Position numbers and translations under genes: made by a program
Virus record (IMG/VR): IMGVR_UViG_3300013121_000002
Coordinates: 43,976-107,975 of that record
Strand: one strand, 5' to 3'
DNA length: 64,000 bases
Source of the DNA: a virus
Taxonomy: Duplodnaviria; Heunggongvirae; Uroviricota; Caudoviricetes
The notes under the pieces: model-generated
Told to the model about the DNA's origin: nothing
Seen by the model: the letters and a program-made list of their open reading frames with translations, nothing else
The model's database searches: none
Part shown: in pieces, positions 3,001 through 63,680 of the stretch
How positions within the stretch are numbered: position 1 is the first letter of the stretch
How the letters are laid out: the number at the start of each line of letters is the position of its first letter

Positions 3001-4083
3001 GGTAGCGTTGCCGTGCTCAATCGCGTACTGCCGGGTGATCGCAACCCAATCGCCCGAATTGATGTGCTTCGCACTCACGTCGTGGTAGCTGCGCTTCTCC
3101 CACGGGATCGCCCGGTACACCCACACGCCGCGATCCGGCTTGCCCTGCAAGCTCCTGATCTTGTCGTAGGCTTCCCAATCGGACGTATCGCCCGTGCCGT
3201 AGTAGCGCATTCCCTCCGGGCTGTAGAAATCGGCCGGGTAGGTGCCGTTGAGCGTCACATCGTAGATCGGCGAACCGCTCTCGTGATCCGGCGCGGTGTG
3301 TGCGCCACGATAATCATTCTCACCGTCCGCCGCAGCGCTGGCACCGTCTGCGGTAGCGAAACGACCGCGCTCGTCATGGTAGGGATTGAACTTCTCGACC
3401 GACCCGTCGCACAGGAGCACGACGTAGAACACGCCGTCCTCGGCCTTGCGCAGCGGCACCTCAGTGAAGTTGCGCACATCCTGCAACGTCGCGCCGTTCG
3501 GCAGTCGTTCCGGCGCAGGAAACACCAGACGGCTCTCGATCCACTCGGGTGGGATCGAACGATTGAGCGTGCGCAGCGCACCCCAGCCCAGCATCTCATC
3601 ACGAGTGAACGATTCACGTTCGGACAGCGGCACCCTGATCTTGAGGACTAGTGGCTCAACCGAATCGAAGTCGCCTTCCTCACGGAACCTGCGGCTCGTA
3701 GCCTCGCGCGCCGCCGTCTGTGCCCAATGAAGTGCGTCGGCGGGCTCTGATGCAACGAACACCGAGTTAACGCGCCCGTTGTCACGGAAGAAGCTGTCAT
3801 CCCAATTCCGCTGTGGCGGCGTAGTCAGCAGACCTTCCTTGGTGATCCGGTCGAGCACCGACGCCGCCGTCCCGTGGTACACGAGAAAGCTCTTTCCGGC
3901 GACGAGCACCGGCACATCGGAAATGAACTGTCGAGGAAGGAACTCGTTGTTGCTTGTCCAGCGCCCATTGAGGTCGCGTGGCTGGTTCGGATCGTACTTG
4001 GTGAGATCGACGTAAATGAAATGCCGCTGGCGACCATCCGCCAGCGGCGTCGAGCCGAGGAGCTTCGCGACCGGGCTATTCAT
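1..4083 (-). CDS. Giant modular polyvalent virion protein (MuF-position minor head/injected protein). C-terminus is truncated by the window start, so the protein is >1360 aa. Contains several ADP-ribosyltransferase-like modules (H-G-T motifs of PARP/diphtheria-toxin type) and a GNAT acetyltransferase module, separated by a repeated KFNPYHDERGRF linker.
   Basis: Minus-strand frame is open from an ATG at ~4083 to position 1. The ATG overlaps the portal stop (ATGAATAG). The ORF track lists no minus-strand ORF/stop in this frame. The long plus-strand ORFs 526..1848 and 1939..3651 are Arg/Leu-rich antisense artefacts. Hand translation of 1681-2265 gives a GNAT motif (SPGAGQALMRRALGRLRARGVERVKL...YQRFGF). 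1381-1530 gives FTLWHGTAAKAVASIKANGIKP, which is PARP-like (LLWHGS...GILSQGLRIAP). 3871-3960 gives FLVYHGTAASVLDRITKEGLL. Seven in-frame copies of (T/E)K(F/Y)(N/D)P(Y/N)(H/Q)(D/P)xxGR(F/W) sit at ~4000, 3390, 2900, 2255, 1590, 980 and 330. Confidence 0.7.
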   Translation of the reverse strand, partial: MNSPVAKLLGSTPLADGRQRHFIYVDLTKYDPNQPRDLNGRWTSNNEFLPRQFISDVPVLVAGKSFLVYHGTAASVLDRITKEGLLTTPPQRNWDDSFFRDNGRVNSVFVASEPADALHWAQTAAREATSRRFREEGDFDSVEPLVLKIRVPLSERESFTRDEMLGWGALRTLNRSIPPEWIESRLVFPAPERLPNGATLQDVRNFTEVPLRKAEDGVFYVVLLCDGSVEKFNPYHDERGRFATADGASAAADGENDYRGAHTAPDHESGSPIYDVTLNGTYPADFYSPEGMRYYGTGDTSDWEAYDKIRSLQGKPDRGVWVYRAIPWEKRSYHDVSAKHINSGDWVAITRQYAIEHGNATLGGNFAIAVRKVPARELFTSGDSFQEWGWDDSVTKYDPNQPRDERGRWSPAGGGEQVQTPEFKAWFKDSKVVDAEGNPLVVYHNTHVWQEGDRALGDFTVFDRMASVTQVGRPEGMDTVGSWFSDRPDKEGAGMYASTGTMYPAFLSIQNPWEPADFDEFISMMHSTAGRDPEGTAGTWLRPIGRGSTGELRAWLASEGYDGIVFRQGRDSSRELANQTVWVALEPTQIKSAIGNRGTFDPNDPDLTKFNPYHDERGRFSEAPGGRSAAADGGGIFRSPFTEEQLDDLYERFSNEYRQAEKEFEAFKERRRFEWVGTDRKQDIVNAEWERLDRHRASLAMLENVVAQDRGSLSHSNGELFAFYDSDDPASVTAALSASIDGRTASIDYLGSVSPGAGQALMRRALGRLRARGVERVKLFAIGGSYPVYQRFGFDFVPGHEVDTIAFPRRGDQTASMEMTFDKSAGDWVITKFNPYHDERGRFATADGRSGVADGERHEGDAAQAFTLWHGTAAKAVASIKANGIKPKGGPGADEWAIKNGFPDPEEWIRQQVIGNEEEGEALIEERRASVFLSTSWNNAARFATAVAEMSNSEPVIVEARIPLDAWRVSARADELSGGQHAFRFKGTIRPEWITEVFPLDQRPDMSNLIAAGARKADYQTVFIILFVDGEEVTKFNPYHDERGRFATADGRSAAGDGGVTSSAAFKAWFGNSKVVDANGNPLVVYRGEAQGGDFTDFAEGSNWFTPSREDAAYYAAAGTEPRAFYLKSEKLLDLTDPYAQENREFLNDFASNYDDWIDPQSGEPMTIFEFLDAGALYNLDVDFRHPERNRWNRLMDAARRSGYDGVVANDFSSGQHPTYVVFDPRNIKSADRNDGGFDPTSTNAFKFNPNHDPSNGRFTFGPAGGETKPVFDNRHSLEFFRANGGTIDAYSTESVFLHYRNDYAGPFPSKRDAEWAAIVWAVAYDTAENLNFPPNTIRVTYDPYEVRLGGEVFNASGHAD

Positions 4084-18339: not shown

Positions 18340-19692
18340 TCAGCCGCCGCGACGGCCCCTCAGACTATCAAGCTGATCCTTGGCCGACTGCGAAGCATCG
18401 CCGACAGCGTCATCAGCTACGCGACGCCGGGGCGGTGCATCATCATCGTCAGCAGCCCGACGACGAGGCGGGGCATCGTCAGCGTCATCAGCCGGACGGC
18501 GACGTGGGGCGTCGTCATCGTCAGCCGGACGCCGCCGCGGCGGGGCGTCATCGTCATCAGCCGGACGACGCCGCGGTGGAGCGTCATCATCGTCAACAGC
18601 CCGACGACGGGGCGGCGCGTCGTCATCGTCGTAGCCACGCGGGCGACGGCGGTCATCGTCGTCGTCAGCCGGACGACGCCGCGGCGGTGCGTCGTCATCA
18701 TCAGCCGGACGGCGGCGAGGCGGGGCATCATCCTCATCGGCCGGACGGCGGCGCGAAGAACGCTCATCGACCTCATCGTCAACCGGACGACGGCGAGGAG
18801 GTGCGTCATCCTCGTCAACCCGGCGACGCGAGCGTGCGGCGCGTTCGTCGATCTCATCGTCATCGCGGCGGCTACCGCGGCGGTCATCATCGTCGTCACG
18901 GCGGCGATTACCGCGGCGGTCATCATCGTCGTCATCCCGGCGCGAAGAAACGAGCGGACGACGGTCATCATAATCGTCATCGCCGCCACGGCGCTCGACC
19001 TTGCCGTACAGAACCGCCTCCAAATAGTCGGCGGGGTAGTAGTGCAGGATGCTCGGTAGCGGATGGGCCATGATGTATTCCATCCACTGATCGTACCGCT
19101 CAGGCTTCGTCGAGAGCGGCGACGGGTCACGGTCGAACTCGACTGCCGTGTATTTCGTTCGCAGCTTCGTGCCAGCGCGGTTCATGTTCAGGTCGTACCC
19201 CTTGTCAGGGTGATCGAACGGCAGCAATGCATTGCTGCGCTTATCGATGGCGCGGTCGTTGACCTCCTTGAACAGCGTGCGAGGCAGCGACCAGACCTGC
19301 GGACCATCGCGCTGCGCATCGCGGTCGATGATCCAAGCGAGCGCCCGATACTGGGGCTTCAGCTTCTTGCGCTCGTCGGCGTCGGTCGAGCGTAGGGAAG
19401 CATTGCAGATCGGGCACTCCTCGTTGCGCATCTGGAGACAGAGATACGTCGCCGCTTCCGGCCCGATGTCGTAGTGCAGGTTGACGCCGATCTCCCAGTT
19501 GTTGCCGTACTTTTCAACGTCATCCCACGTTCCCGGCAGCACACGCAGACGATTCTCACCTTCCTTCGGTTTCCAAATCAGGACGGCGGGATCGACGTAG
19601 CTGTCGAAATTCCCGCCGCGCGCTTCATTCACTCGACGACGAACGTCATCGACCGTGCGGTTTTCACCGCGATAGACAAAACCCTTCACCAT
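18340..19692 (-). CDS. Zn-binding N-domain protein (possible gp32-like ssDNA-binding protein) with a long C-terminal tail of DDDDAPPRRRPA tandem repeats
   Basis: The N-terminal ~250 aa are globular with CLQMRNEECPICNASL. The C-terminal ~200 aa are roughly 12 copies of a 12-aa acidic/basic repeat. Location within the replication module. Confidence 0.5.
   Translation of the reverse strand: MVKGFVYRGENRTVDDVRRRVNEARGGNFDSYVDPAVLIWKPKEGENRLRVLPGTWDDVEKYGNNWEIGVNLHYDIGPEAATYLCLQMRNEECPICNASLRSTDADERKKLKPQYRALAWIIDRDAQRDGPQVWSLPRTLFKEVNDRAIDKRSNALLPFDHPDKGYDLNMNRAGTKLRTKYTAVEFDRDPSPLSTKPERYDQWMEYIMAHPLPSILHYYPADYLEAVLYGKVERRGGDDDYDDRRPLVSSRRDDDDDDRRGNRRRDDDDDRRGSRRDDDEIDERAARSRRRVDEDDAPPRRRPVDDEVDERSSRRRPADEDDAPPRRRPADDDDAPPRRRPADDDDDRRRPRGYDDDDAPPRRRAVDDDDAPPRRRPADDDDAPPRRRPADDDDAPRRRPADDADDAPPRRRAADDDDAPPRRRVADDAVGDASQSAKDQLDSLRGRRGG
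18420..18900. repeat. Tandem 36-bp coding repeats (about 12 copies)
   Basis: Repeated gccggacgacgccgcggcggggcgtcatcgtcatca-like units. On the minus strand they encode ADDDDAPPRRRP. Confidence 0.7.
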
Positions 19693-25030: not shown

Positions 25031-26113
25031 TTAGCGACCGCTGGTAGCGACCTCGATGTGGCCGTTGTGACGGAACCACCAGAGAAACTGCCGCGAAACA
25101 CCACTCGCGAGCGCGTCGCTCACCTTCATGCCCTTGCGGAGCTTCGCGAACTCGTTGAAGCGATCCGAGCCGTCGCGATACGGATTTCCCTTCACGACGA
25201 TCTTGAGCTTCGCGTTGTCCGGGAAGTCGGTCGCCTTCCGTCCGCGCTTGCCGCCAGTCGGCAACGCCGTTGCAGCCTTGCGGGCCGGGGCCTTCGCAAC
25301 AGCAGCCGCCTTGCCGCGGGCCGGGGCCTTCGCAGCGGCCTTCGCAGGGGCCTTCGCCGCAGCCTTGCCGCGGGCCGGGGCCTTCGCAGCAGCAGCAGCC
25401 TTGCCGCGGGCCGGGGCCTTCGCGGCGGCCTTCGCAGGAACCTTCGCAGCAGCCTTCGCCGGGGCCTTCGCAGCGGCCTTCGCAGGAGCCTTCGCAGCGG
25501 CGGCCTTGCCACGGGCCGGGGCCTTCGCGGCGGCAGCAGCCTTGCCGCGGGCCGGGGCCTTCGCGGCGGCAGCAGCCTTGCCACGGGCCGGGGCCTTCGC
25601 AGCGGCCTTCGCGGCGGCCTTCGCAGGGGCCTTCGGTGCAGCAGGGGCCTTCGGTGCAGCAGCCTTCGCAGCCCGCGGAGCACGCTTCGGGGCCGTCGTC
25701 TCGACCTCCGTAGTCACAGTCGCATCCATAGTTCCAACTCCTTCTGCGGACGATCCAGCATCAGCATCGACCGCGGTTACATCATCAGCACCACCTCCCG
25801 TCTCCTCGACTTCAGCAGCACCAGTTTCCTGCCCGGCATCGCCGGGCTCGTCAGCAACGATCCGCCCGGAACCAACAGGCACCTCGTCGGGGAAAGCCGG
25901 AAGCGGCGTATTCCCGGACGACTTCTTGTTGTCCTCGACCACGTCTGTCGCCGCATTCAACCACTCCTGCGCCTCGCGGCTCAGTGTTTTCCATGCGTCG
26001 TCGTCGATGATCTGACCTGCGCTGAAAATGCGGAGCTTCAACGCCTGATCCGTCTCCCCGTCCTTGCGCTCAATCTTGAGCTTCGACAGGAACTCACCAA
26101 GCAAAGCACTCAT
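25031..26113 (-). CDS. Histone H1-like / AlgP-like Ala-Lys repeat DNA-binding protein with globular N- and C-terminal domains
   Basis: The central ~140 aa are made of KAAAKAPARGKAAAAA-type repeats. The C-terminal part KLKIVVKGNPYRDGSDRFNEFAKLRKGMKVSDALASG is globular. Confidence 0.6.
   Translation of the reverse strand: MSALLGEFLSKLKIERKDGETDQALKLRIFSAGQIIDDDAWKTLSREAQEWLNAATDVVEDNKKSSGNTPLPAFPDEVPVGSGRIVADEPGDAGQETGAAEVEETGGGADDVTAVDADAGSSAEGVGTMDATVTTEVETTAPKRAPRAAKAAAPKAPAAPKAPAKAAAKAAAKAPARGKAAAAAKAPARGKAAAAAKAPARGKAAAAKAPAKAAAKAPAKAAAKVPAKAAAKAPARGKAAAAAKAPARGKAAAKAPAKAAAKAPARGKAAAVAKAPARKAATALPTGGKRGRKATDFPDNAKLKIVVKGNPYRDGSDRFNEFAKLRKGMKVSDALASGVSRQFLWWFRHNGHIEVATSGR
25260..25690. repeat. 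Coding tandem repeats (Ala/Lys-rich, about 36-48-bp units)
   Basis: Repeated gccttcgcagcggccttcgcaggggccttcgc-like units. Confidence 0.65.
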
Positions 26114-30313: not shown

Positions 30314-30517
30314 CGCCTGCTCCCCTGATCCATGAAGGACGACAGTGGTAGCACAACGCCGAATGAAAAAAGAAGGCCCCCCGGATGCCCTCGCGGGGAG
30401 CCTTCACTTTTGCCCACCTATCACATACCCCAGCCGGTGGCCTCCGGGGCAGAGCGTGCCACACTAGTGAGTGGCACACCCTATGTGGTGATGACGCTAA
30501 CGAATGCAAGAGGGAGA

Positions 30518-30548
30518 CATAACGAAACGGGGAGGCTTTCGCCTCCCC
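30518..30548 (-). terminator. Terminator-like conserved hairpin module (type 1, copy 0)
   Basis: GGGGAGGC-GAAA-GCCUCCCC followed by GUUUCGUUAUGU on the minus strand. Lies in the leader of the DnaB gene. Confidence 0.45.
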
Positions 30549-30632
30549 GCTCGACCATGCCCCACCTTGGCTCACCGCACCGGACCCGGCCGCGCCACAC
30601 CTCGGCTTGCCTTGCCACACCTCGAAAATTGA

Positions 30633-31322
30633 TTAGGCTTTCGCGACCTTGAACGAGGTCACGCCGAACCGACCGTAAGTCGGACGGAAATCGGCGACGC
30701 CGACGAGACGACCGGCCTGTTCGATCACCTCGCGCAACGTAGAAGGCTCGATGTATTCCGGCAGAAGAACCATGATCTGGAACGTCGCCTTCCACCCGGA
30801 GCGCAGCGCCGGGCGAACACGAGTGACGCCGTTCCGCTGGATCATCACACGACGCCTGTCGAGGTAGTCCCAAGTCTTGAGCCCGGTCGGAGCGAGTTCA
30901 GTCAGCGAGACGACACCCGCCTTGAACAGGTCCATCGCCGACTTGCGCGGCGACCGCGGGTCTTGCCGGAACTTCGCGGCGGCGATAATCGCCTGCCGCA
31001 GATACTCGCCGGGAACGCTAATGAGCCCCCTGTCATTGCGGTACAGGTAGCTCTCCACATCGTCGGTTTTCTTCGCCTTGGAGTTCTTGGCGGCGACGCT
31101 CTTGGCCTCGACCGCCTCGTTGTTCCAGCGATGGAACAGGAGATCGCTGGTGCCGGTGATCTCGACCGTGGCGGTGTACGGAATCCCCGCCTCAATGGTA
31201 TTTGCCCCACCATTGGTGGGTTCGCTGACATGATCGACGCGCTTGCGCCGTGAACCACTTGCTTCCACGTTAAAACCTCCATTTGCCATCGCGATCACAC
31301 TCGGGATTGAGCACTGTCGCAT
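30633..31322 (-). CDS. Hypothetical protein
   Basis: 229-aa ORF. Possible start at MANGGFNVEASG. Confidence 0.45.
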   Translation of the reverse strand: MRQCSIPSVIAMANGGFNVEASGSRRKRVDHVSEPTNGGANTIEAGIPYTATVEITGTSDLLFHRWNNEAVEAKSVAAKNSKAKKTDDVESYLYRNDRGLISVPGEYLRQAIIAAAKFRQDPRSPRKSAMDLFKAGVVSLTELAPTGLKTWDYLDRRRVMIQRNGVTRVRPALRSGWKATFQIMVLLPEYIEPSTLREVIEQAGRLVGVADFRPTYGRFGVTSFKVAKA

Positions 31323-31332
31323 CTAGGCGAAT

Positions 31333-31364
31333 AATCAAATGGAGTGTTCGTTAGCGTTTGTCAA
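31333..31364 (-). promoter_or_regulatory. Promoter-like TTGACA-N17-CATTTG element directly downstream of the terminator
   Basis: Minus-strand reading: TTGACAaacgctaacgaacactcCATTTG. Confidence 0.3.
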
Positions 31365-31366
31365 CT

Positions 31367-31397
31367 ACAAACGAAACGGGGAGGCTTTCGCCTCCCC
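31367..31397 (-). terminator. Intrinsic terminator, type 1, copy 1
   Basis: GGGGAGGCGAAAGCCUCCCC + GUUUCGUUUGU on the minus strand. Confidence 0.5.
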
Positions 31398-31517
31398 GCT
31401 CGACCATACCCTGCCCGGCCGCGCCATACCTCACCGAACCGCGCCCCACCTTAGCCCTCCGCACCGTGCCCGACCGTGCCTTGCCATGCCAAACCTCACC
31501 CGACCTCACCATGCCTC

Positions 31518-31553
31518 TAATAAAAAGGGCGGCTGCCTTTCGACAACCGCCCA
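31518..31553 (-). terminator. Intrinsic terminator, type 2
   Basis: Minus strand: GGGCGGUUGUCGAAAGGCAGCCGCCC followed by UUUUUAUUA. Confidence 0.6.
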
Positions 31554-31646
31554 CCATGCCTTACCCGACCGAACCCTCACCTTCGCCCGGCCGTACCGGA
31601 CCCAACCTAGCCTCACCAGACGCAAATCGTCACAAGCCGGTGCCAA

Positions 31647-31678
31647 ACCAAATGGATGCTTCGTTAGCGTTTGTCAAC
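31647..31678 (-). promoter_or_regulatory. Promoter-like TTGACA-N17-CATTTG element
   Basis: Minus strand: TTGACAaacgctaacgaagcatcCATTTG. Confidence 0.3.
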
Positions 31679-31699
31679 CACAAACGAAACGACCTCACG

Positions 31700-31744
31700 T
31701 CCATTACAAAAAGAGCGAGGAGGCTTTCGCCAACTCGCTCTTTC
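31700..31744 (-). terminator. Intrinsic terminator, degenerate type 1 copy
   Basis: Minus strand: GAGCGAGUUGGCGAAAGCCUCCUCGCUC + UUUUU. Confidence 0.5.
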
Positions 31745-31784
31745 CGTTCAAAATGAGGTAACACTATGAGGTACCGCCTCACCG

Positions 31785-31817
31785 CTCAAATGGATGGTTC
31801 GTTAGCGGTTTGTCAAC
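31785..31817 (-). promoter_or_regulatory. Promoter-like TTGACA-N17-CATTTG element
   Basis: Minus strand: TTGACAaaccgctaacgaaccatcCATTTG. Confidence 0.3.
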
Positions 31818-31818
31818 C

Positions 31819-31849
31819 ACAAACGAAACGGGGAGGCTTTCGCCTCCCC
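31819..31849 (-). terminator. Intrinsic terminator, type 1, copy 3
   Basis: Same hairpin + GUUUCGUUUGU. Confidence 0.5.
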
Positions 31850-31995
31850 GCTCGACCATAGCTCACCGCGCCTGACCTAGCCTAGCCAGACCCCACCCGA
31901 CCACACCGTACCAAACCAAACCTGACCACACCCTACCGGACCCGACCGGACCATGCCGGACCTCACACTACCTAGCCCGACCTCACCCAGCCTAT

Positions 31996-32030
31996 AATAA
32001 AAAGGGCGGCTGCCTTTCGACAACCGCCCA
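31996..32030 (-). terminator. Intrinsic terminator, type 2, second copy
   Basis: GGGCGG...CCGCCC hairpin + UUUUUAUUAUAGG. Confidence 0.6.
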
Positions 32031-32103
32031 CCATGCCTTACCCGACCGAACCGGACCACACCACGCCTAAGCGTGCCGCTCCTGACCTTACCGGGGTGCA
32101 AAC

Positions 32104-32135
32104 CAAAATAAATACATCGTTAAGTGTTTGTCAAC
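32104..32135 (-). promoter_or_regulatory. Promoter-like TTGACA-N17-TTATTT element
   Basis: Minus strand: TTGACAaacacttaacgatgtatTTATTT. Confidence 0.3.
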
Positions 32136-32147
32136 AGCACAAACGAA

Positions 32148-32179
32148 ACGAGGAGGCTTTCGCCTCCCCGCTCGACCAT
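32148..32179 (-). terminator. Intrinsic terminator, type 1, copy 4 (variant)
   Basis: GGGGAGGCGAAAGCCUCCUC + GUUUCGUUUGUGCUG. Confidence 0.45.
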
Positions 32180-32273
32180 GCCCTGCCCGGCCGCGCCATA
32201 CCTCACCGAACCGCGCCCCACCTTGCCGTAGCCAACCTTACCGCAGCGTCCACTTAAACCAAAATCAAACTAC

Positions 32274-35280: not shown

Positions 35281-35520
35281 TTAGCTCCTTGAGTGCTGCC
35301 TGATCCATTCCTTGGCGGCCACCGGGTCAGCAACCACCGCGACAACTCGTTGGGGCGGAATCTTGGCACGGATGGCGATCCTACCATCAGGCTGCTTCTC
35401 CGTCAGGAACCAGCGGTGCTCCTTCGCCATCCGCTGCATTTCGTTATCTTCCCGCTGCCGGTGTTTCTGTTCCAGCGGCTGCATCTTCCGTGCTCGACGC
35501 TTGCTAATGATCTGCGACAA
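35281..35520 (-). CDS. Hypothetical basic protein
   Basis: 79-aa ORF, Arg/Gln-rich. Confidence 0.4.
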   Translation of the reverse strand: MSQIISKRRARKMQPLEQKHRQREDNEMQRMAKEHRWFLTEKQPDGRIAIRAKIPPQRVVAVVADPVAAKEWIRQHSRS

Positions 35521-36267
35521 CTCCCCACCTCAACTGCTGGTAGCAACCCTAGCGTGTGATAGCTAGGAACCTTTGGTTTTGCACGCCCTCGCGCCCCTCC
35601 GGGTCGCTCGTTCTCTGGCAGCATCACTCACTCGACGCCCTGCGGGCGCTCGTTCGCTGGATCAAGGGGTAGGATGAAGTAGAGCACACTGACGGCCCGT
35701 TAGGGGCCGTCAGGTGTTGCGTAGGGTATAGGAAGTTAGCGTCCCACGATTGGATTGTCGGACTGTTCCCGGTGCGAAATGAATGCTCTGTGGGAACACG
35801 AGGGCGGTTAGGCTGAATACCCCCTACCGATGCTGATCTTCTAGCGCCACCCCAAGCCTGCGAATCCAACCACAGGATCAGGGCTCTCGGGCTCATTTAA
35901 GCCGAGGTCATTTGGTGTGCTGCCATGCTCTTGGCGGTATTCCGGGAGTTCCCCACCCGCCTTGAAGCGGTGACGACCGGAGCGCAACAGGGCGCGAGCT
36001 ATGTTGCCGCGCCGGACTTGCAAGGTGGGGGTGCTTTGCCCTATTTTCAGGGCTCTACACCGCGCTCCTCGGCAAAGGACTTCGCGGTCTTTCGGCCCAC
36101 GGTTTCGCGACCGTGGGCCGAGTCATTTCTGGCACAGCCCGATCCCGGTTGGCAAGAAGGCTCCGCGCAGGCCGCCAGAAGGCCCGTAGGACGCCAGAGC
36201 GCGGATTGAGCCCTACAGCCCAGTGCTGCTACTCTCCCGGCCCTGTAGGAGGCCGTAGGGACCAACG
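35521..36267. promoter_or_regulatory. About 740-bp ORF-free, hairpin-rich divergent intergenic region (leader of the NusG-like operon, possible ncRNA)
   Basis: No credible ORF on either strand. Hairpins include GACGGCCC-GUUA-GGGCCGUC and CACGGU-UUCGCG-ACCGUG. Confidence 0.35.
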
Positions 36268-36795
36268 ATGATCGAGCGGCGGCGACCCAGCCGATGGATC
36301 GTGTGCAGCACGCAGCCGCAGCGTGAGCGTTGGGCTGCCGACAACGCCCAGCGCCAAGGCTACGACACCTACCTGCCCATGATCCGCACCGAGGTCGTCG
36401 AGCGCGGCGTCGCCTCGCTCCGGGTCCGGCCGCTGTTCCCGCGCTACCTGTTCGTCCACATCACCAATGAGCAATGGCGCTCGCTGACCGGCACGTTCGG
36501 CGTGGCGTCGATCATCATGGGCGACAACGGTCGCCCTGCCACGCTGCCCGAGATCGCCATCGACCAGCTAAGGGCGCGCGAGCGCGACGGATACGTCGTG
36601 CTGCCCCGCGCCGAGGAGATCGCCCTGACGCCCGGACAGGCCGTCCGGGTGCTCGCCGGGCCGTTCGAGGGTACGGTCGGCGTGTACGTCGGCATGGGGC
36701 CTGCGGAGCGCGAGCGCGTGCTGCTGGACCTGCTCGGCCGCAAAACGACCGTGCTCGTCAGCCCGGACAACATCGCAGGGGAGAATGACACATGA
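36268..36795 (+). CDS. NusG/RfaH-family transcription antiterminator-like protein (NGN + KOW)
   Basis: NGN-like N-domain: WIVCSTQPQRERWAADNAQRQGYDTYLPMI...PLFPRYLFV. KOW-like C-domain: LTPGQAVRVLAGPFEGTVGVYVGM. Confidence 0.55.
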   Translation: MIERRRPSRWIVCSTQPQRERWAADNAQRQGYDTYLPMIRTEVVERGVASLRVRPLFPRYLFVHITNEQWRSLTGTFGVASIIMGDNGRPATLPEIAIDQLRARERDGYVVLPRAEEIALTPGQAVRVLAGPFEGTVGVYVGMGPAERERVLLDLLGRKTTVLVSPDNIAGENDT

Positions 36796-37160
36796 CGCTG
36801 TTCGTCGCCGGGGATTTCAAATCCCACTCGGGATTGATCCTGCACGAGAAGATCGAATGCGACGCGCTGACCCCGGCCGACCTCGATTGCCTTGCGCAAA
36901 TCATTCACCGCCATGCGTGGCCGTGGTCCCGTGCAATCGGCATTCCGTTTGGTGGGGTGCCGCTGGCGACGGTCCTGAACCTACGCTACAAGCGGTCGGA
37001 CGATGCTCCGGTGCTCGTCGTCGATGACGTACTGACCACCGGGAAATCGCTGATCGAGGCCATGGGGCAATATGCAAATGCCACCGGGTTTGTTATCTTC
37101 GACCGCTCGGGCAAACCATTGCCGCCCGGCGTGAAGGCGATCTTCACCATGATCGCCTAA
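36792..37160 (+). CDS. Small type-I phosphoribosyltransferase (PRTase) domain protein
   Basis: PRPP-binding motif VLVVDDVLTTGKSL. Confidence 0.6.
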   Translation: MTLFVAGDFKSHSGLILHEKIECDALTPADLDCLAQIIHRHAWPWSRAIGIPFGGVPLATVLNLRYKRSDDAPVLVVDDVLTTGKSLIEAMGQYANATGFVIFDRSGKPLPPGVKAIFTMIA

Positions 37161-37181
37161 ACCAAATGAGATCGTTTCGCC

Positions 37182-38000
37182 TTGAAGTTCGACAACTCCC
37201 TGTTCCTGACCCGCGAGGTCGAACGTGACCTCCTCGTGCGCGCCAAGGCAGGAGATCGGGCGGCGCGCGACCGGCTGGTTCTCGCCCATCGGCCGCAGGT
37301 GATTGGCGCGGCGCGCAAGTTTGCCCGCGTCTACCCCACCATCGACATCGACGATCTCATATCCGAGGGGAACATCGGGTTGATGGCGGCGATCCGGTCA
37401 TTCGACATGGAACAGACCGTGCGCTTCGCGACCTACGCCGTGTACCACATCGGCAACCGGGTCCGGGATTTCATCCTCCGCAACGCAGCGCACGGCGTCA
37501 GCTTCGCGGGCACCACGGCGACGCGGGCGCTGTTTTTCAAATCGCGGATGCTGCTGATGAATGAGTCGGCATCGGGTCGGCCGCTCGCTGAGCAATATCA
37601 GCGGGTCGCTAACAAGCTCGGCGTCACGGTGCGACAGCTAACCGACTTCCTGAACTTCGGCACGTCGTCGCTCGACGCCCCACCACCGGGTGGCACCGGG
37701 GAAGCTGCTCTTTCCTCGGTCGGTGAACTGCTCGTCGATGCAACGGCACCCGACCCGGAGGAGCACACTGACGAGAGCCAGCGGGCGAAGCTGTTGCACG
37801 ACGCTCTGAACCGGCTGGAGCCGCGCGACCGGCTGGTGCTGATCTCGCGCTTCATGAACAACGAGACGCTGGAAGGTGCCGCCGCCACCCTGAAGGTGAC
37901 GCGCGAACGCGTGCGCCAGATCGAGAGTCGGGCACTGCGGCGACTGAAGGATTTGCTGATTGATTTGCAGCCGGAACCGGAACGCACCGCGGCCGAATAA
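37182..38000 (+). CDS. Sigma-70 family RNA polymerase sigma factor
   Basis: Region 2: DDLISEGNIGLMAAIRSFD. Region 4 HTH: TLEGAAATLKVTRERVRQIESRALRRLK. Confidence 0.8.
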   Translation: MKFDNSLFLTREVERDLLVRAKAGDRAARDRLVLAHRPQVIGAARKFARVYPTIDIDDLISEGNIGLMAAIRSFDMEQTVRFATYAVYHIGNRVRDFILRNAAHGVSFAGTTATRALFFKSRMLLMNESASGRPLAEQYQRVANKLGVTVRQLTDFLNFGTSSLDAPPPGGTGEAALSSVGELLVDATAPDPEEHTDESQRAKLLHDALNRLEPRDRLVLISRFMNNETLEGAAATLKVTRERVRQIESRALRRLKDLLIDLQPEPERTAAE

Positions 38001-38239
38001 AGGTTGTGCCGGGTTACTCGGGACGGGACACCGGCGCTCCGTGTAGGAGAAGTTCCCATAGCTAACAAAGGGAAGCCGGTCTGGCTGTAGCAGAAGCGCA
38101 CCGGCCCCGTATGCGCCGGAAATTGCTTCTCCAATTCAAAAAGTCAATAGGTTAGGTGTTGACGATCAGCAACACCCGGTACTAGATGTGGCTGTCGGAT
38201 CATACGCAGGGTCCGACTGGGCACGGCGACCACAGGGGA

Positions 38240-38272
38240 GGGGCGGGAACCAGTTTCCCGCCCCTTTCGTTT
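38240..38272 (+). terminator. Rho-independent terminator
   Basis: GGGGCGGGAA-CCAG-UUUCCCGCCCC followed by UUUCGUUU. Confidence 0.55.
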
Positions 38273-40208
38273 AGAGGTCGATGATCGACCCGGACGGCGT
38301 CTTGCGGATGGTCGTGACCGACTTGAACCGTTGCGTTTCCGGCGTCTGGTGGTCGATGAGGAAAACCTGCCGAGCCAGCCGCTCGGCTCGATCCGCCAGC
38401 AGTTCAATAAGATCGGCAATCCCCTCCTCGGACAGCCCGCGCGTCGGCTCGTCGAAGATTTCGAGGTTGACCGTCACCCCGGCGTAATTGAGCAGCACTT
38501 CGCTCAACGCCATCGCGCCGACGAGACGCAGCCGCTGACCCTCGCCGCCGCTGAATGCGTCAAGGGGCACAGAGCGTCGGCCCTGTGCCCCTACCACACC
38601 ACGCCGTGCCATGCCGTACCCCGCCGTACCTTGGCGTGTCTCGCCCGGCCTCACCACGTCGATCTCATATGGGGTAATGCTTACGTTAATACCACGTTGG
38701 ATCGAACCAGAGGCCGTCTCGCGCTCGACCGCATACTCGATCTGCCAACCAAGCAGGCCGACACTCTCCAGCACCGAGTTCGTCGTCATCGTCAACTGAG
38801 CCAACACATCCTCCATGATGAACAGGCGCACGTCCTTGAAGCCTTTGACCCAAAACCGGGTCCGGGCGATCCGCTGCTCCAGTTTCGCCAGTTCGTCGTT
38901 CGCCGCATCGATCTTGTCGTCGAGCCCGGCGAGCTTCTGCTTGAGCGTGACGATCTGCGTCTGGTGAGGATTGGTTTCCTTCTCGGCCGCTTCGATCTGC
39001 CGGGTCAAAGCCGCGACTTCGCCTTGCAGATTGACATGGTGCGGCCGGGCGACGTTGAGTTGCGTCAGCGCCGCCGCCTCGGCGTCGAGGTACTGGCGAT
39101 TGGCCTCCTCGATCCGGTCGAGCACCTTATGCGCCGCACGGTGGTCGGCGTCGAGCGAATCGAGCGACGCCGTCAGCTTAACGATCTCCTCCTCCACCTC
39201 CGCGCGCTGCCGATGCAGTTCGTCCCGGTGCTTGGACAAGTCCGCCTTCTTGGTCGGCTGGCCGCAGGTTGGACACGTCCCGCCCGCCTTGAGCCCGGCG
39301 ATCTCGCGGTCGAGGCGTTTCATGTCGGACTTCATTCCGGCGAGCTTCACGTCGGCGCGGTCGTGCTCCGAACGCGCATCGCTGAGCAAGCCGCGGTATT
39401 TGGTGATGTCATCCCGCGTCGTCTTGAGTTGCAGCCCGGCGCTTTCCAGCGCGAGTTCGGCGTCGGCGACGCGGCGGTCGAGCTTGGCCAGTTCCTCCCG
39501 TGCCGCCACGAGCCGCGTGTTGAAGCCGTCGAGCCGGGCGGCGTGTTTCTCCTGCCACGCGGTGCTGTCCTCGCGCGCCGTGTCCAGCAGCGATTGTAGC
39601 TGACGCTGCGTGCCCTTCAGTCCGGTAAGCTCACCCTCAACCGTTGCCCGGTCATGGTCGAGGTTGGTGGCGACCCGGCTGGCCGTTGCCGACAGCGCAT
39701 CCCAGCGGTCGAGTTGCAGCACCTCGCTGAACAGTTCCATCTTCTCGCGCGGCTGGAGATCGAAGAACAGCGGGCGACCCTGACCAAACAGGATTGCGTG
39801 CGAGAACAGGTCGAAGCTCAGGCCGATGGTGGCTGCCGCATCGACCGCCGAATCCTTACCGTTGATAGTGAATGAATTGGGGTTCGAGCACCGTTCGAAC
39901 GTGACGTGCTCGCCGTCGATCTCGACCAGCACCATGACACGCGAGGATTTGCCCTGCGCGCTGTCCCGCGGCTTCACGTCAGGGTTCTTGAGCCCGGAGA
40001 TCGTCTTGCCGTACAGGCACCACGTCAGCGCGTTCCAGATGGTTGATTTGCCGGAACCGTTCGCGCCGAGTCGCGGCTCGACCTCGTTGATGCCGCGGAT
40101 GAAGTGAAGGCCGCCGCGCTCGTCGTCCGGCTCGATCTGAAAGGTATGCGGCCCGACACCAAACGATCCGAAGCTGGCAAGCTCGATCTTAATGAAATGA
40201 ATCTCCAC
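38271..40208 (-). CDS. SbcC/Rad50-like ATPase
   Basis: Walker A GANGSGKST. Long coiled coils with a CPTCGQP zinc hook. ABC signature/D-loop FSGGEGQRLRLVGAMAL...IFDEP. Confidence 0.75.
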   Translation of the reverse strand: MEIHFIKIELASFGSFGVGPHTFQIEPDDERGGLHFIRGINEVEPRLGANGSGKSTIWNALTWCLYGKTISGLKNPDVKPRDSAQGKSSRVMVLVEIDGEHVTFERCSNPNSFTINGKDSAVDAAATIGLSFDLFSHAILFGQGRPLFFDLQPREKMELFSEVLQLDRWDALSATASRVATNLDHDRATVEGELTGLKGTQRQLQSLLDTAREDSTAWQEKHAARLDGFNTRLVAAREELAKLDRRVADAELALESAGLQLKTTRDDITKYRGLLSDARSEHDRADVKLAGMKSDMKRLDREIAGLKAGGTCPTCGQPTKKADLSKHRDELHRQRAEVEEEIVKLTASLDSLDADHRAAHKVLDRIEEANRQYLDAEAAALTQLNVARPHHVNLQGEVAALTRQIEAAEKETNPHQTQIVTLKQKLAGLDDKIDAANDELAKLEQRIARTRFWVKGFKDVRLFIMEDVLAQLTMTTNSVLESVGLLGWQIEYAVERETASGSIQRGINVSITPYEIDVVRPGETRQGTAGYGMARRGVVGAQGRRSVPLDAFSGGEGQRLRLVGAMALSEVLLNYAGVTVNLEIFDEPTRGLSEEGIADLIELLADRAERLARQVFLIDHQTPETQRFKSVTTIRKTPSGSIIDL

Positions 40209-42888: not shown

Positions 42889-43626
42889 GTGGCGAAACTG
42901 AACCAAATCATTGCCATCGAGAAGGGGATCAAATCCCGGACGTATGGCGAGTTGACCGAAGTCAACAAGGCGATCCAGAAGCCTGACCTGTTCAACGGCT
43001 TCTACAAATCATACCAGTCGCGTGACGACGAAGGCGACGTACTGCCTGCCGAGCGCAAACGCGTCCAGTACAACACCCGCGAGGTGTTACAGCACGTCGA
43101 GCGCCTGTCCACTGAACTCATCGACGTGACGGCGCGCAAGGATTTCACCAACTGCATCGCCAAGGCCGACGTGGTCGTCGATGGGGTTACCATCGTCACC
43201 GGAGCGCCGGTCAGCTTCCTCCTGTTTCTGGAGAAGCAGTTGACCGATCTGCATACGCTCGTCGGCAACCTGCCCGTCCTCGACGAGGCCGAGGCTTGGG
43301 CGCTCGATCCCAATTCCGGGCTCTACAAGACCGAGGGTACGCAGACCCATCGGACCAAGAAGGTCCAGAAGCCCATCGTTCTCTATCCGGCGACGCCGGA
43401 ACACCCGGCGCAGACGCAGATGGTCACGGAGGACGTGATCGCCGGTTTCTGGTCGCAGGTGAAGCACTCCGGGGCGCTGCCGAAACCGAACAAGCTGGAG
43501 CTACTGGAGCGGGTCGAGGAGCTACTGCGCGCCGTCAAGCAGGCGCGCGAGGAGGCCAACATTCAGGAGGAGGTGCCGACGCCTTCGGTCGGCGGTGCCG
43601 TTTTCCAGTACCTGCTCGGGAGCTAA
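42889..43626 (+). CDS. Hypothetical protein
   Basis: 245-aa ORF with an RBS AGGGGAGCTACCGTG upstream and unbiased composition. Confidence 0.5.
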   Translation: MAKLNQIIAIEKGIKSRTYGELTEVNKAIQKPDLFNGFYKSYQSRDDEGDVLPAERKRVQYNTREVLQHVERLSTELIDVTARKDFTNCIAKADVVVDGVTIVTGAPVSFLLFLEKQLTDLHTLVGNLPVLDEAEAWALDPNSGLYKTEGTQTHRTKKVQKPIVLYPATPEHPAQTQMVTEDVIAGFWSQVKHSGALPKPNKLELLERVEELLRAVKQAREEANIQEEVPTPSVGGAVFQYLLGS

Positions 43627-43739: not shown

Positions 43740-44330
43740 AATAAGCTCAGCCTTGTCGTGAATTTGAGTTGCGAACGTGGGGGTTCAAATCCTCCCTCCC
43801 CGACCATGACGGGGAGTGCCGGAACGGTAGACGGGAGTCCCTTCGGGACTTGTTCGCTTCAAACTAAATCTATTCACGCAAGTTGAGCATTGCCGCGCCG
43901 ATCCTATCGAGGTGCGTCGGGTTCCAATTGAGAGGCGCTGGTTCAAATCCAGCCGCGCCCGCCATGTGGGGCGCGTGGTCCAGCGGAAGGGCGCTCAACA
44001 TGAAACTGATCCGACGTATTAAACGCCGAGGGTTGGGAGAAGTCGCGGTACAAGCCCCGGCAGTCTAGGCTAGTGCTGCCGGGGCACCTATCCCAGAGGT
44101 TCCAGCTTGGGGAACGGATCAGCGGCCAAGAGGTTCAAAGGCCACGGACCTGCGGGTAGCTCGACGGAGCAAAACCTGCCAACGCTGATCCAGCAATTCG
44201 TGCTCGGAGAATAGATCACCGGGGACCGAGAGGGGGTCCGCCACCTCCTGTAGAACAGCCCGGTGCAGCTTACGCCTGTCTGCACCGAGCCAAAGCCTAC
44301 CTCCCGGTGATCCCTATCAAGGGATAATCA
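43740..44330 (+). ncRNA. ORF-free region with tRNA-like fragments: two T-arm + 3' acceptor + CCA elements, each immediately followed by its complementary 5' acceptor strand (permuted tRNA-like/Y-RNA-like modules), plus a strong 10-bp hairpin
   Basis: GGGGGUUCAAAUCCUCC-CUCCCCG-A-CCA-uga-CGGGGAG at ~43768-43806. GCUGGUUCAAAUCCAGC-CGCGCCC-G-CCA-ugu-GGGCGCG at ~43925-43967. D-loop-like AACGGUAGA/AGCGG follows each. Hairpin GCCCCGGCAG/CUGCCGGGGC at ~44043-44073. Confidence 0.35.
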
Positions 44331-45699: not shown

Positions 45700-45784
45700 T
45701 TGGTTTCCCTCCTACAGGAACCGCGTTGCGATGCAAATGAAATGGGGAGCCCGGCTCCCCATTTCAAGTCCTAATCGTTACGTT

Positions 45785-48370: not shown

Positions 48371-48643
48371 TTCGTTTCCCTCCTACAGGAACCGTATTGT
48401 GATGCGTTACAGATAACGACCCTTCAGCAGCGGTGCAAGGGGTGCCAAACGAAAATATTCAAGAAGGGTGGCCGGTCGCCAAAAATCGACACCTGTTCCA
48501 GCGTCCCGTTCTACCGCGATTTCGTTAGCTGCACAAGCCGAAACGTAACGATTACGAAAAAATTGGTGCAGCCCCTTGCGCGCGAGCGTTAGCGGGACCA
48601 TCTTTCAATTGTTAGCAACACACCCTGTAGGAGGGGTACGCAG

Positions 48644-49027: not shown

Positions 49028-49169
49028 GAGCCTCCGGGGCGGTCCTCACGGGCCGCCCCAAATTCGTTAGCAACACCACTTGCGCTCGCTAACGAATTGC
49101 GCTACCTAGACGGACAATGGAACAGGCGTGAATTTTTTAGCGATTTGTCCCTGTAGGAGGGGAACGACC

Positions 49170-50230: not shown

Positions 50231-50315
50231 CGACGCTGAAAATCGAAATCAAACCACTTGAAACGGATCGTGGCTGACCCCATTTCATTATCGTTCCTGT
50301 AGGAGGGAAACGAAA

Positions 50316-50525
50316 ATGGCAGTTAGCAAGGCACAGGTCATCCCCGGCTCGATCTTCGCCAAGGGTGGCAACTTCGCGGTCACGTCGCGCTGCGGCAGCA
50401 TCCTCGACACTACGGTGTTCGACACGCGCGACGAGGCTTGGGCTGAGTTCCAGCGGCGCGGTAGCGACCCAGCGCACAACGGGGTTAGCTTCACGGTCCA
50501 CCCCGGTTTGGTCGAGGAGGAGTAG
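50316..50525 (+). CDS. Hypothetical protein
   Basis: 69 aa. Initiation motif CCTGTAGGAGGGAAACGAAAATG. Confidence 0.45.
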   Translation: MAVSKAQVIPGSIFAKGGNFAVTSRCGSILDTTVFDTRDEAWAEFQRRGSDPAHNGVSFTVHPGLVEEE

Positions 50526-51421: not shown

Positions 51422-51486
51422 ACGCACCCCTTGACGAACGATAACGAAATACCCATTTATTAGTCGTCCGGTAGGAGGGACACAAA

Positions 51487-52292: not shown

Positions 52293-52452
52293 CCCCCCTC
52301 CTACACTAGGGGTCAGATCGGTAAGCGCCGGGGTAGTAGGGGCAACCCTCCCCCGGCGCACTCATTTTCGTTAGCGTTCCACCTTGCAAACGAAATCAAA
52401 CGACATTATCTCATGGTCATCGAAACACGGTTCCTGTAGGAGGGAAACGACC

Positions 52453-55018: not shown

Positions 55019-55094
55019 TCCCCGGTAGCTCAACTGGTAGAGCACCCGCCTGTTAAGCGGACGGTTGCTGGTTCGAGCCCGGCTCGGGGAGCCA
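55019..55094 (+). tRNA. tRNA-Asn (GTT) with encoded CCA
   Basis: D-arm GCTCAACTGGTAGAGC. Anticodon loop CTGTTAA. T-arm GCTGG-TTCGAGC-CCGGC. 3' end TCGGGGA-G-CCA. There is one acceptor mismatch, so tRNAscan confirmation is needed. Confidence 0.55.
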
Positions 55095-61409: not shown

Positions 61410-61504
61410 CAAAAAGGGGAGGGTTTCGACCCTCCCCACTTGCTAATGAATTGACCCCGCCTATATGGTGGTGATGACAACCCGGTAGGAGGGGTTTCAT
61501 TACC

Positions 61505-63074: not shown

Positions 63075-63680
63075 CGAACGCGTCTATCTAGCCGCCAGCC
63101 TCTGGTGTAGAGCACGGTTACTTCACACTTCCAATGTGACCAACGACCGGGTTCGTTATTTCCGAGGCGACCATCATTCCCGCAGGTCGCGGGGAGCGTC
63201 TGGTGTTCGAGCACGGCTACTTCGATTGATAATCGAGAGGTTGTTGGTTCGATCCCAATCAGGCCCCGCAAGGGACTTGTAGCTCAACTGGTAGAGCACT
63301 AAGCCGGGTTCAGCTTTCTTCCGGCGCTCCACCCCGACCTGCGGGAGTGTGTGGTGTGAGGGAGTTGGTGTTAGGTTACGGTTACTTCGGATGAAAGCTA
63401 CGGGCTCTTAACCCGTTCGCTCCATGGTGGTTCAAATCCACCAAACCGGAACCGCCTTTTCCACTCCCTCGCTCCACACACGCAGATCAATTCGAGTGGC
63501 GCGTACCCTCTGGTGCAGATCACGGGTACTTCGCCTCTGGAGCGGGAGGTCGTTGGTTCGAATCCAACCGGGTCCACCATTCTACGGGCCTGTAGCTCAG
63601 CGGTTAGAGCGCCTAACGTAACCGGGATCGTCCTTTCCGAGGATACGCCCCACTCGAATTGATTTGCATTGGCCGCCCCT
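63075..63680 (+). ncRNA. Cluster of tRNA-like / Y-RNA-like (YrlA-type) structured RNAs upstream of a Ro60-like gene
   Basis: Canonical D-arms: GTAGCTCAACTGGTAGAGC at ~63280, GTAGCTCAGCGGTTAGAGC at ~63598. T-arms with encoded CCA: GTTGGTTCGAATCCAACCGGGTCCACCA at ~63560; GGTGGTTCAAATCCACC at ~63427; GTTGGTTCGATCCCAAT at ~63244. None assembles into a colinear canonical tRNA. A tCTGGTGyAGAgCACGGyTACTTCG module repeats four times. Confidence 0.45.

Follow-up and report, generated by a model that had tools for sequence, protein, structure and literature searches.

What does a bacteriophage gain from encoding a NusG-like elongation factor, a small phosphoribosyltransferase (PRTase) and a sigma factor in direct succession? 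The question is raised by a 64,000-nt stretch of a caudoviricete genome (IMG/VR record IMGVR_UViG_3300013121_000002, positions 43,976 to 107,975), hereafter the window, to which the coordinates and counts of operon and sites refer unless stated otherwise. A first-pass annotation made from the letters alone had read the three genes as a regulatory operon and a complete transcription-takeover kit, a description that we find plausible for the outer two. On balance we lean towards a unit specific to one phage lineage, in which the products of the outer genes would reprogramme the host RNA polymerase while the middle gene provides a co-expressed protein of nucleotide metabolism, the mini-PRTase.

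A three-gene transcription unit

The window is phage DNA. It has a GC content of ~62% and carries a phage gene set comprising the portal, the large terminase (TerL), DNA polymerase, two helicases, a primase and SbcCD. A nucleotide search with the whole segment 35000-40500 gave no match among 50,697 deposited phage genomes. The three consecutive plus-strand open reading frames (ORFs) lie where they had first been placed, and are accompanied by the following features.

36017-36046, plus strand: promoter-like site of the operon, CTTGCA-N16-CCCTATTT, matching the consensus at 12/14 positions, 222 nt upstream of the NusG-paralogue start
36091-36122, plus strand: GC-rich leader hairpin with a stem of 12-14 bp, then TCATTTCT; possibly an attenuator or a weak intrinsic terminator
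36242-36252, plus strand: CCTGTAGGAGG element of the operon, with the Shine-Dalgarno sequence inside a conserved motif common to 11 other copies in the window
36268-36795, plus strand: ORF of the NusG paralogue (gene 1), 175 amino acids (aa); NGN residues 9-103, predicted KOW barrel 125-171; RfaH/UpxY-like
36792-37160, plus strand: ORF of the mini-PRTase (gene 2), 122 aa; predicted type-I PRTase core, like that of orotate PRTases (OPRTases)
37182-38000, plus strand: sigma factor ORF (gene 3), 272 aa, TTG start; assigned to the RpoH family (sigma-32-like)
38239-38270, plus strand: intrinsic terminator at the end of the operon, an 11-bp GC stem followed by TTCGTTT

A 4-nt overlap (ATGA) joins genes 1 and 2, and 21 nt separate gene 2 from gene 3. 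The peptides PLFPRYLFV, GQAVRVLAGPFEGTVGVYVGM and VLVVDDVLTTGKSL that had been quoted earlier are present in the ORF translations, and the GC content at third codon positions (GC3) is 0.77-0.89 across the three genes, the codon-position pattern being that of real genes of this genome. Comparison with a relative of 73% identity gives ratios of non-synonymous to synonymous substitution rates (dN/dS) of 0.36 for the NusG paralogue, 0.19 for the mini-PRTase and 0.23 for the sigma factor, so that purifying selection acts on each of the three, most strongly on the mini-PRTase. The layout suggests that the three co-oriented genes form a single transcription unit, extending from the promoter-like site at 36017-36046 to the terminator at 38239-38270. 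The terminator contains a perfect inverted repeat (38239-38249/38255-38265) and abuts the stop codon of sbcC, which runs convergently. A sigma-70-like TTGACG-N17-TACTAG (38140-38200), located after the stop codon of gene 3 and before this terminator, is directed into the 3′ end of sbcC and may be an antisense promoter or a chance match.

How widely is the trio found? A metagenomic relative with ~73% DNA identity (contigs L091 and L092) has the same three genes in the same order, and it keeps both the overlap between the NusG and PRTase genes and the TTG start codon of the sigma gene. Related phage NusG paralogues were confirmed at 134 or more IMG/VR loci, of which the neighbourhoods of 80 (L145-L224) were examined; within 6 kb, one of these loci has a sigma-like ORF and one a mini-PRTase. 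No NusG or sigma homologue was detectable when 90 mini-PRTase loci were searched with the window proteins, and a scan of viral contigs for close relatives with the NusG protein alone found none. On these counts the trio appears to be a lineage-specific arrangement that recurs only in one close relative. The operon thus stands as first described, but not as a conserved module.

Gene 1 encodes a specialized NusG paralogue

The proposal that gene 1 combines NGN and KOW domains in the manner of NusG and RfaH has held up well. The NusG NGN domain (PF02357) is matched at residues 9-102 with E = 2e-15 (57.4 bits, gathering score 22.2). The KOW domain is weak by sequence (PF00467, E = 0.01, 16.1 bits, gathering score 22.3), and the RfaH and NusG profiles align over the full length of the protein, KOW region included. 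An AlphaFold (AF2) model based on 35 homologues has a mean predicted local distance difference test score (pLDDT) of 92, with the NGN alpha/beta fold above 90, and it places a five-stranded KOW beta-barrel at residues 125-171. Among solved structures the best match is Escherichia coli RfaH (7e-10), followed by housekeeping NusG at ~2e-5, and phrog_6386 ('transcription antiterminator') is matched at 1e-16. The curated NCBIfam models are matched below their cut-offs, namely RfaH at 1e-25 (TIGR01955, 90.6 against 144.5 bits; NF006534, 60.6 against 124 bits), UpxY at 8e-20 (NF033644, 71.5 against 100 bits) and LoaP (NF033641, 17.8 against 125 bits). By sequence and model, the gene 1 product is a specialized NusG paralogue, closest to RfaH/UpxY and to paralogues of Bradyrhizobium polysaccharide operons. 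The nearest cellular relatives are 171-aa 'RfaH' proteins of Bradyrhizobium and Xanthobacteraceae (41-43% identity), which hints at an alphaproteobacterial host for the phage. Their genes follow a helix-turn-helix gene where operons for polysaccharide synthesis begin, a location that is classical for NusG paralogues of this kind.

The protein shares the two-domain build of the specialized paralogues RfaH, UpxY, LoaP and TaA (NusG-SP), and R23 and Q24 of RfaH have their equivalents in R29 and Q30. It differs from RfaH, UpxY and LoaP in scoring below every curated equivalog cut-off, and from all four in being phage-borne and apparently co-transcribed with a sigma gene. The C-terminal domain of RfaH can form an autoinhibitory helical hairpin, whereas that of gene 1 is predicted in the beta-barrel state alone, with no helical hairpin; a single AF2 prediction cannot exclude fold switching. 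In L091 and L092 (positions 1-100 of each) the first ~31 residues of the paralogue, corresponding to NGN strand 1 and helix 1, are swapped for an unrelated in-frame sequence (...EFRGLVRAEENGQTIVALEYEA-YLPMI...). Since the same junction is found in contigs of independent samples, this suggests real recombination or replacement rather than an error of assembly.

In related phages the paralogue has a characteristic position. TerL (phrog_38, 8e-67) lies ~2 kb downstream on the same strand in 31 of the 80 viral loci, and in 28 of these a small ORF separates the two genes. Phage NusG paralogues thus seem typically to head a packaging operon, and a literature search did not find a description of such a paralogue upstream of terminase. 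The arrangement matches the 'encoded next to the target' layout of UpxY and LoaP, and suggests a widespread Q-like strategy of late-gene antitermination. The resemblance to lambda Q and N would be one of logic, whereby a phage factor carries the polymerase through terminators ahead of later genes, and for Q also one of place, upstream of the terminase genes. In contrast to Q and N the protein belongs to an unrelated family, no qut- or nut-like element was found, and antitermination by the phage paralogue is a prediction.

An RpoH-like sigma factor and promoter-like sites of matching shape

Regions 2 and 4 of a sigma-70 family factor, recognized in gene 3 from the start, both score above the Pfam gathering thresholds (Sigma70_r2, PF04542, E = 8e-13, 48.5 against 24 bits; Sigma70_r4, PF04545, E = 4e-15, 55.6 against 24.1 bits), and TIGR02937 gives 105 bits against a cut-off of 42.9. 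The top NCBIfam matches are the RpoH models TIGR02392, NF005143 and NF005693, full-length at ~1e-40; the score of ~138 bits is below their equivalog cut-offs of 241-323, with RpoH still the best-scoring subfamily. phrog_351 is matched at 2e-39, and the best solved match is E. coli RpoH (8hkc, 4e-21). The sequence TRALFFKSR aligns with QRKLFFNLR of the E. coli protein (RpoH box Q[RK][RK]LFFNLR), so that the box is partly conserved. In a collection of 5.8 billion sequences no protein besides the exact sequence itself is more than 37% identical, the nearest relatives being alphaproteobacterial sigma-32 proteins. Metagenome scans with the sigma protein and with the degenerate pattern TFGVASIIM gave no true relatives. 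Gene 3 is therefore best described as a divergent sigma factor of the RpoH (sigma-32-like) family: regions 2-4 align full-length with RpoH and an RpoH-box-like motif is present, whereas the identity to cellular RpoH is low and the equivalog cut-offs are not reached.

Does the genome contain sites of the kind that such a factor would recognize? A de novo dyad search of upstream regions gave CTTGA-N17-CCCATTT, which has the canonical sigma-32 shape (cognate form CTTGAA-N13-17-CCCCATnT). Exact dyad enumeration by itself barely exceeds shuffled sequences, and the result became convincing only once the RpoH-shaped dyad was followed up. CTTGA-N15-19-CCCAT has three matches against 0.4 expected, all intergenic and oriented. 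There are four distinct sites matching CTTGAA-N15/16-CCCCATTT at ≥12/14 positions (0.6 expected), including that at 36017-36046, while TTGA-N16-18-CCATTT occurs five times (0.12 expected; 5/5 intergenic) and CTTG-N17-19-CC[CT]ATTT four times (0.05 expected). The degenerate pattern CTTGNN-N14-16-[CAG]YYATNT is matched 12 times against 1.9 expected; 6-7 of these matches are intergenic, all pointing to a start codon at a distance of 29-41 nt. The window thus has eight or more promoter-like sites of sigma-32 shape, intergenic, correctly oriented and far above chance. Besides that of the operon they are:

45740-45768, minus strand: promoter-like site, CTTGAA-N15-CCCCATTT, 14/14, 41 nt before the gene at 45699-45478
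48411-48439, minus strand: promoter-like site, CTTGCA-N15-CGTTATCT, degenerate pattern, 41 nt before the gene at 48370-48185
48575-48603, plus strand: promoter-like site, CTTGCG-N16-ACCATCT, degenerate pattern, 41 nt before the gene at 48644
50257-50285, plus strand: promoter-like site, CTTGAA-N15-CCCCATTT, 14/14, 31 nt before the gene at 50316
51430-51458, plus strand: promoter-like site, CTTGAC-N15-ACCCATTT, 12/14, 29 nt before the gene at 51487
52383-52411, plus strand: promoter-like site, CTTGCA-N15-CATTATCT, upstream of the CCTGTAGGAGG element at 52433
61439-61466, plus strand: promoter-like site, CTTGCT-N14-GCCTATAT, 39 nt before the gene at 61505

The correspondence between the type of the sigma factor and the shape of these sites provides good circumstantial evidence that the two are paired. 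The expectation of a promoter consensus upstream of late genes was thereby borne out in part. The sites exist, but they precede accessory genes and the operon itself, and because the genes downstream are uncharacterised accessory genes their assignment as 'late' promoters was rejected.

The sites might have another reader. The heat-shock sigma factor of the host (RpoH), induced by the stress of infection, could use them, leaving the phage factor to serve other promoters such as those of structural genes, or to act as a decoy or competitor for the regulators of host sigma-32. The shape of the sites is indeed the canonical cellular sigma-32 consensus, the phage factor is sufficiently distant (≤37% identity to any cellular RpoH) that its specificity may have drifted, and no sigma-32-type site was found in the replication and structural block at 4-30 kb. 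Yet that factor retains the full-length architecture of RpoH together with the RpoH-box region, one of the sites precedes its own operon, and dyad and k-mer searches revealed no second promoter class for it to use. We regard exclusive reading by host RpoH as unlikely, if far from negligible, and prefer the view that the phage sigma factor would itself recognize these sites.

Leader, terminator array and repeated elements

The leader of the operon is dominated by the hairpin at 36091-36122, a perfect 12-nt inverted repeat that is the strongest plus-strand terminator-like site between 20 and 40 kb; the entire leader is more stably folded than its shuffled controls (z = -3.1). Rfam searches of the whole window (gathering threshold) and of 35450-38300 (E-value threshold) returned tRNA only, with nothing in the leader or terminator stretches. 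The sole sequence that the leader shares with other intergenic regions is the translation-initiation motif CCTGTAGGAGG. This is present in 12 copies with ≤1 mismatch (0.53 expected in the window), at 36242, 45708, 48379, 48624, 49150, 49601, 50296, 51468, 52433, 54222, 61482 and 63837, each 5-15 nt before a start codon except the last, where no start is mapped. The motif is often located within a small hairpin (GTTCCCTGTAGGAGGGAAC) followed by AACGA..ATG. Several copies come directly after a sigma-32-like site, and would therefore lie at the 5′ end of the mRNA. The element could act as an operator of translation common to these genes, stabilise the mRNA as a 5′ hairpin or recruit a factor.

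Terminator-like sites are abundant in the 20-40 kb region, where there are 37 against 18.7 ± 5.1 expected, and the most striking group is on the opposite strand to the operon.

30525-32173, minus strand: array of six strong intrinsic terminators with 11-12-bp stems, interleaved with promoter-like cassettes

The individual terminator-like sites are at 32173, 32029, 31853, 31552, 31401 and 30552, in a region that holds repeat families D5, D9 and D14. The array stands at the head of a leftward block of ~26 kb that runs from the replication genes through to terminase and portal, and it is a plausible candidate for the target of the NusG paralogue. On the minus strand at 31.3-31.8 kb there are three related cassettes, GTTGAC-N15-CTCCATTT.

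The stretch 30511-32224 (minus strand) is built of repeated 42-86-nt cassettes, with the order ~45-nt conserved segment, hairpin GGGGAGGC-GAAA-GCCTCCCC, GTTTCGTTTGT and promoter-like GTTGAC-N15-CTCCATTT. It has sigma-70-like sites at 32134 and 32023, and ~950 nt of it are without a convincing ORF. The spacing fits several transcripts of ~60-160 nt, perhaps small RNAs or leader RNAs; the repeats might also be iterons. A further motif, GCTAACGAA, occurs at 49064-49095, 31348, 31661, 31799, 48522, 52368 and 35278. At 49.06-49.10 kb it is present as an inverted pair, TTCGTTAGC-N-GCTAACGAA, and each of the three cassettes at 31.3-31.8 kb has it in the spacer. The motif may serve some phage regulator as an operator.

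The mini-PRTase has a type-I PRTase fold lacking the catalytic loop

Is the 122-residue product of gene 2 a genuine PRTase? It had been proposed to bind phosphoribosyl pyrophosphate (PRPP). An AF2 model calculated from the family alignment (pLDDT 94) has the five-stranded Rossmann-like core of a type-I PRTase, and Foldseek matches it with a probability of 1.0 to orotate PRTases first and then to xanthine-guanine PRTases (XGPRTs), with TM-scores on the query of 0.6-0.75 (~0.7 for the orotate PRTases). With such a fold the PRPP-loop motif is not spurious, and the protein is predicted to have a true type-I PRTase fold, closest to the orotate PRTases. It scores 24.4 bits with the PyrE model TIGR00336, below the cut-off of 106.8.

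Ten positions are invariant in 45 members of the family (I21, C23, D78, D79, V80, T82, T83, G84, V101 and R105), and the PRPP-binding loop V77 D78 D79 V80 x T82 T83 G84 is invariant or nearly so. The family profile aligns with orotate PRTases in two blocks, 6-63 (the N-terminal hairpin and the helix of the pyrophosphate loop) and 70-109 (from the PRPP loop to the conserved arginine). In common with PyrE and UMP synthase there are the core fold, the PRPP loop VVDDVxTTG, the conserved arginine after the last core strand, and an OPRTase-like N-terminal hairpin (F-x-S-H/K-S-G ... K-I-E-C-D compared with K-S-G ... Y-I-D). The differences lie in what is missing. The protein has 122 aa against the 170-230 aa of PyrE, the N-terminal helix and the C-terminal helices are absent, and the segment of the flexible catalytic loop is ~6 residues long in the family compared with ~27 in the Aeropyrum pernix enzyme (residues 78-104). 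None of the 150 top representatives has an insertion at this position.

The family is large. A word-indexed collection yielded 64 homologues of 117-193 aa. In an exhaustive profile search the family comprises 949 clusters (50% identity) at E ≤1e-30, rising to 1,728 at E ≤1e-10, and in every cluster the domain is a single unbroken stretch of ~120 residues. At the level of loci, 454 were confirmed in IMG/VR, and tblastn with three members (that of the window, P0014 and P0030) found no match in the 50,697 deposited phage genomes. The fusion partners of the longer homologues are inconsistent, and none of these is a fusion with PyrF.

Association of the mini-PRTase with OMP decarboxylase

The surroundings of the mini-PRTase genes are always phage-like, but diverse, and across phages the family is associated with neighbourhoods of nucleotide metabolism. 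Clustering of the neighbours revealed one recurrent enzymatic partner, the orotidine 5′-monophosphate (OMP) decarboxylase PyrF (Pfam 5e-33). Of 80 viral loci anchored on the PRTase, 12 encode PyrF within 6 kb, compared with none of 80 control viral loci (Fisher p = 3e-4), and the converse search, anchored on PyrF, found a mini-PRTase within 6 kb in 22 of 53 viral loci. The genes are often immediately adjacent or share 4 nt, with either one first, and across these lineages the PRTases are only 45-67% identical. On some contigs (L107/L062; L123/L058) the two are both present but far from each other. The repeated pairing with OMP decarboxylase is a further likeness to PyrE, and we infer that it is the signature of a two-step pathway from orotate via OMP to uridine 5′-monophosphate (UMP), pointing the family towards pyrimidine metabolism rather than signalling. 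The association outweighs a regulatory reading based on the gene order of the window, and the middle gene is most probably a passenger from nucleotide metabolism, with no regulatory function.

Orotate PRTases are dimers in which the loop of each subunit completes the active site of its neighbour (cf. the title of PDB entry 1oro). In an alternative reading the mini-PRTase would be catalytically inactive, sequestering PRPP, OMP or orotate, or acting as a poison subunit that heterodimerises with host PyrE. This is a serious rival, consistent with the shortening of the loop segment throughout the family (0/150 representatives with an insertion), the absence of the terminal helices, and the retention of invariant ligand-binding motifs. 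The dN/dS of 0.19 would suit an active enzyme and an inactive binder alike. The tight and repeated linkage to PyrF, with 4-nt overlaps in both orders, is predicted by the route from orotate to UMP and not by an inhibitor, and we consider a purely ligand-binding or poisoning role rather improbable.

We are considerably more doubtful of a regulatory role, in which the protein would be a nucleotide or PRPP sensor like PyrR or PurR, an RNA-binding attenuator tuning the antiterminator or the sigma factor, or a modifier of a signalling nucleotide. The gene is translationally coupled between those of two transcription factors in this phage and its relative, PyrR and PurR show that a PRTase fold can serve in nucleotide or PRPP sensing, and the family profile weakly matches PyrR (~1e-3). 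That match is limited to the generic PRPP motif, there is no DNA- or RNA-binding extension, and fold comparison ranks orotate PRTases first. Moreover, the family is not beside transcription factors in ≥90 other loci, its genomic partner being PyrF rather than regulators, and no PADLOC defence or signalling PRTase model matches the protein at E ≤0.01. The original suggestion of a PRTase sensing or modifying a nucleotide signal, or acting in DNA or RNA base modification, finds no support. Least credible of all is a part in the hypermodification of DNA or RNA bases, whereby a modified base would be turned into an unusual nucleotide, since the candidate partners (in one T4-like relative, clustered Tet/JBP, amidotransferase and acetyltransferase genes at 3-6 kb from the mini-PRTase; in the window, a dCTP deaminase and a DUF7873 gene nearby) are not consistently linked to the family (DUF7873 in 3/90 loci, the Tet/JBP cluster once) as PyrF is, and we know of no hypermodification pathway that uses a type-I PRTase.

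Several other neighbours were observed. A second, conventional PRTase of 153 aa (PF00156, 2e-14) is found 2-3 kb upstream in phages with an abutting mini-PRTase-PyrF pair (L099:3652-4113, L083:1606-2067 and L084:1958-2416). The DUF7873 gene of the window (Pfam 7e-96) is at 42889-43626, ~6 kb from the mini-PRTase, and such a gene is also near mini-PRTases of two other phage lineages (L004:154-888, L007:12430-13161 and L008:6068-6799), once beside a Ro60/TROVE gene. We judged this co-occurrence, and adjacency to SbcC in ~10% of mini-PRTase loci, too weak to interpret. In the T4-like phage L001 the mini-PRTase gene lies between gp47-like and gp46-like genes, and the Tet/JBP dioxygenase, amidotransferase and acetyltransferase genes at L001:11669-15111 form a cluster typical of DNA base hypermodification. 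A homologue of AmoC, subunit C of ammonia monooxygenase (Pfam 1e-109), is encoded ~3 kb from the mini-PRTase in nine loci (L038:2346-3107 and eight similar), so that some hosts of mini-PRTase phages are probably ammonia oxidisers.

A model for the operon

How might these elements work together? The operon would first be transcribed from its sigma-32-type promoter, whether at a basal level or by means of host sigma-32. Once made, the phage sigma factor would recognize the same class of promoter, boosting its own operon and turning on the blocks of accessory genes at 44-62 kb. The NusG paralogue would bind the elongating RNA polymerase via its NGN domain, in the manner of RfaH, UpxY and LoaP, and the polymerase so modified would resist pausing and termination, passing the leader hairpin and the six-terminator array at 30.5-32.2 kb. 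We infer that readthrough of array and hairpin is the most natural job of the paralogue; passage of the array would open the ~26-kb leftward replication and packaging block. The mini-PRTase would bind PRPP and an orotate-like base, making or handling OMP to feed UMP synthesis during replication, and its place in the operon would be a matter of timing and not of regulation.

A number of observations weigh against this model. As the trio is absent beyond one close relative, gene order alone shows no functional coupling. The genes behind the sigma-32-like sites, which include DUF932, DUF7831 and a PNKP-type phosphatase, are uncharacterised rather than late or structural, and host sigma-32 could be the reader of those sites. 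The T-tract of the leader hairpin is poor, and the leader is known from the window alone, since the metagenome scans described above provided no true relatives with which to compare it. No ops-like recruitment site was found for the NusG paralogue. In contrast to RfaH and its target, the E. coli ops consensus (GGCGGTAGnnTG) is not enriched in the window (four one-mismatch matches against 4.8 expected, none in a leader), and it was rejected as a recruitment element on account of this chance-level frequency. For the mini-PRTase, PF00156 scores 21.0 bits, below its gathering score of 26.3, and this sequence match covers the PRPP-loop motif only. Its catalysis is uncertain given that the flexible loop with the catalytic residues is missing, PyrF was not found in the window, and 68 of the 80 mini-PRTase loci have no PyrF within 6 kb.

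The elements can be combined more ambitiously into a closed, self-amplifying circuit made from two host-derived parts that share one docking site on RNA polymerase, namely a mimic of sigma-32 and a private NusG paralogue, co-transcribed from a promoter of sigma-32 type and placed behind an attenuator hairpin. Here the host heat-shock sigma factor would boot the system, the phage factor would take over the promoter class, the paralogue would open the six-terminator barrier, and the loop-less PRTase, as the founding example of its large family, would be a minimal viral OMP-forming enzyme or a PRPP- and orotate-binding link to pyrimidine supply. In its entirety we think this scheme improbable, and we retain the looser lineage-specific unit as our preferred account.

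Some of the components are of known kinds. Phages encode sigma factors such as T4 gp55, SPO1 gp28 and phiEco32 gp36, 'rpoH-like' genes are annotated in some jumbo phages, and rfaH-like genes are known from phages and prophages. What is new is the placing of an RpoH-type sigma factor and a NusG paralogue in one attenuator-fronted operon, with matching promoter-like sites and a terminator barrier in the same genome, and the membership of the middle gene in a very large, loop-less, PyrF-associated and uncharacterised family of phage PRTases. If the proposed role of the outer genes is true, the operon offers a compact and testable model of phage control over both initiation and elongation by the host RNA polymerase. 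If the mini-PRTase were shown to be active, the minimal PRTase would have to be redefined, and the auxiliary metabolic genes would gain a viral module for UMP synthesis.

Other features of the window

Two minus-strand ORFs, at 18340-19692 and 25031-26113, contain long runs of imperfect 36-nt (12-aa) tandem repeats; the first has an SSB-like PHROG match and repeats rich in Asp, Arg and Pro. The region 900-3400 holds four copies of a repeat of ~40-113 nt (families D6, D7, D15 and D18). No gene there passes the GC3 filter and the long plus-strand ORFs have no PHROG match; the region may belong to a minus-strand gene with a repeat domain, extending beyond the window. Finally, the window includes two phage tRNA genes, for tRNA-Asn (GTT) at 55019-55094 and tRNA-Gln (CTG) at 63503-63579.

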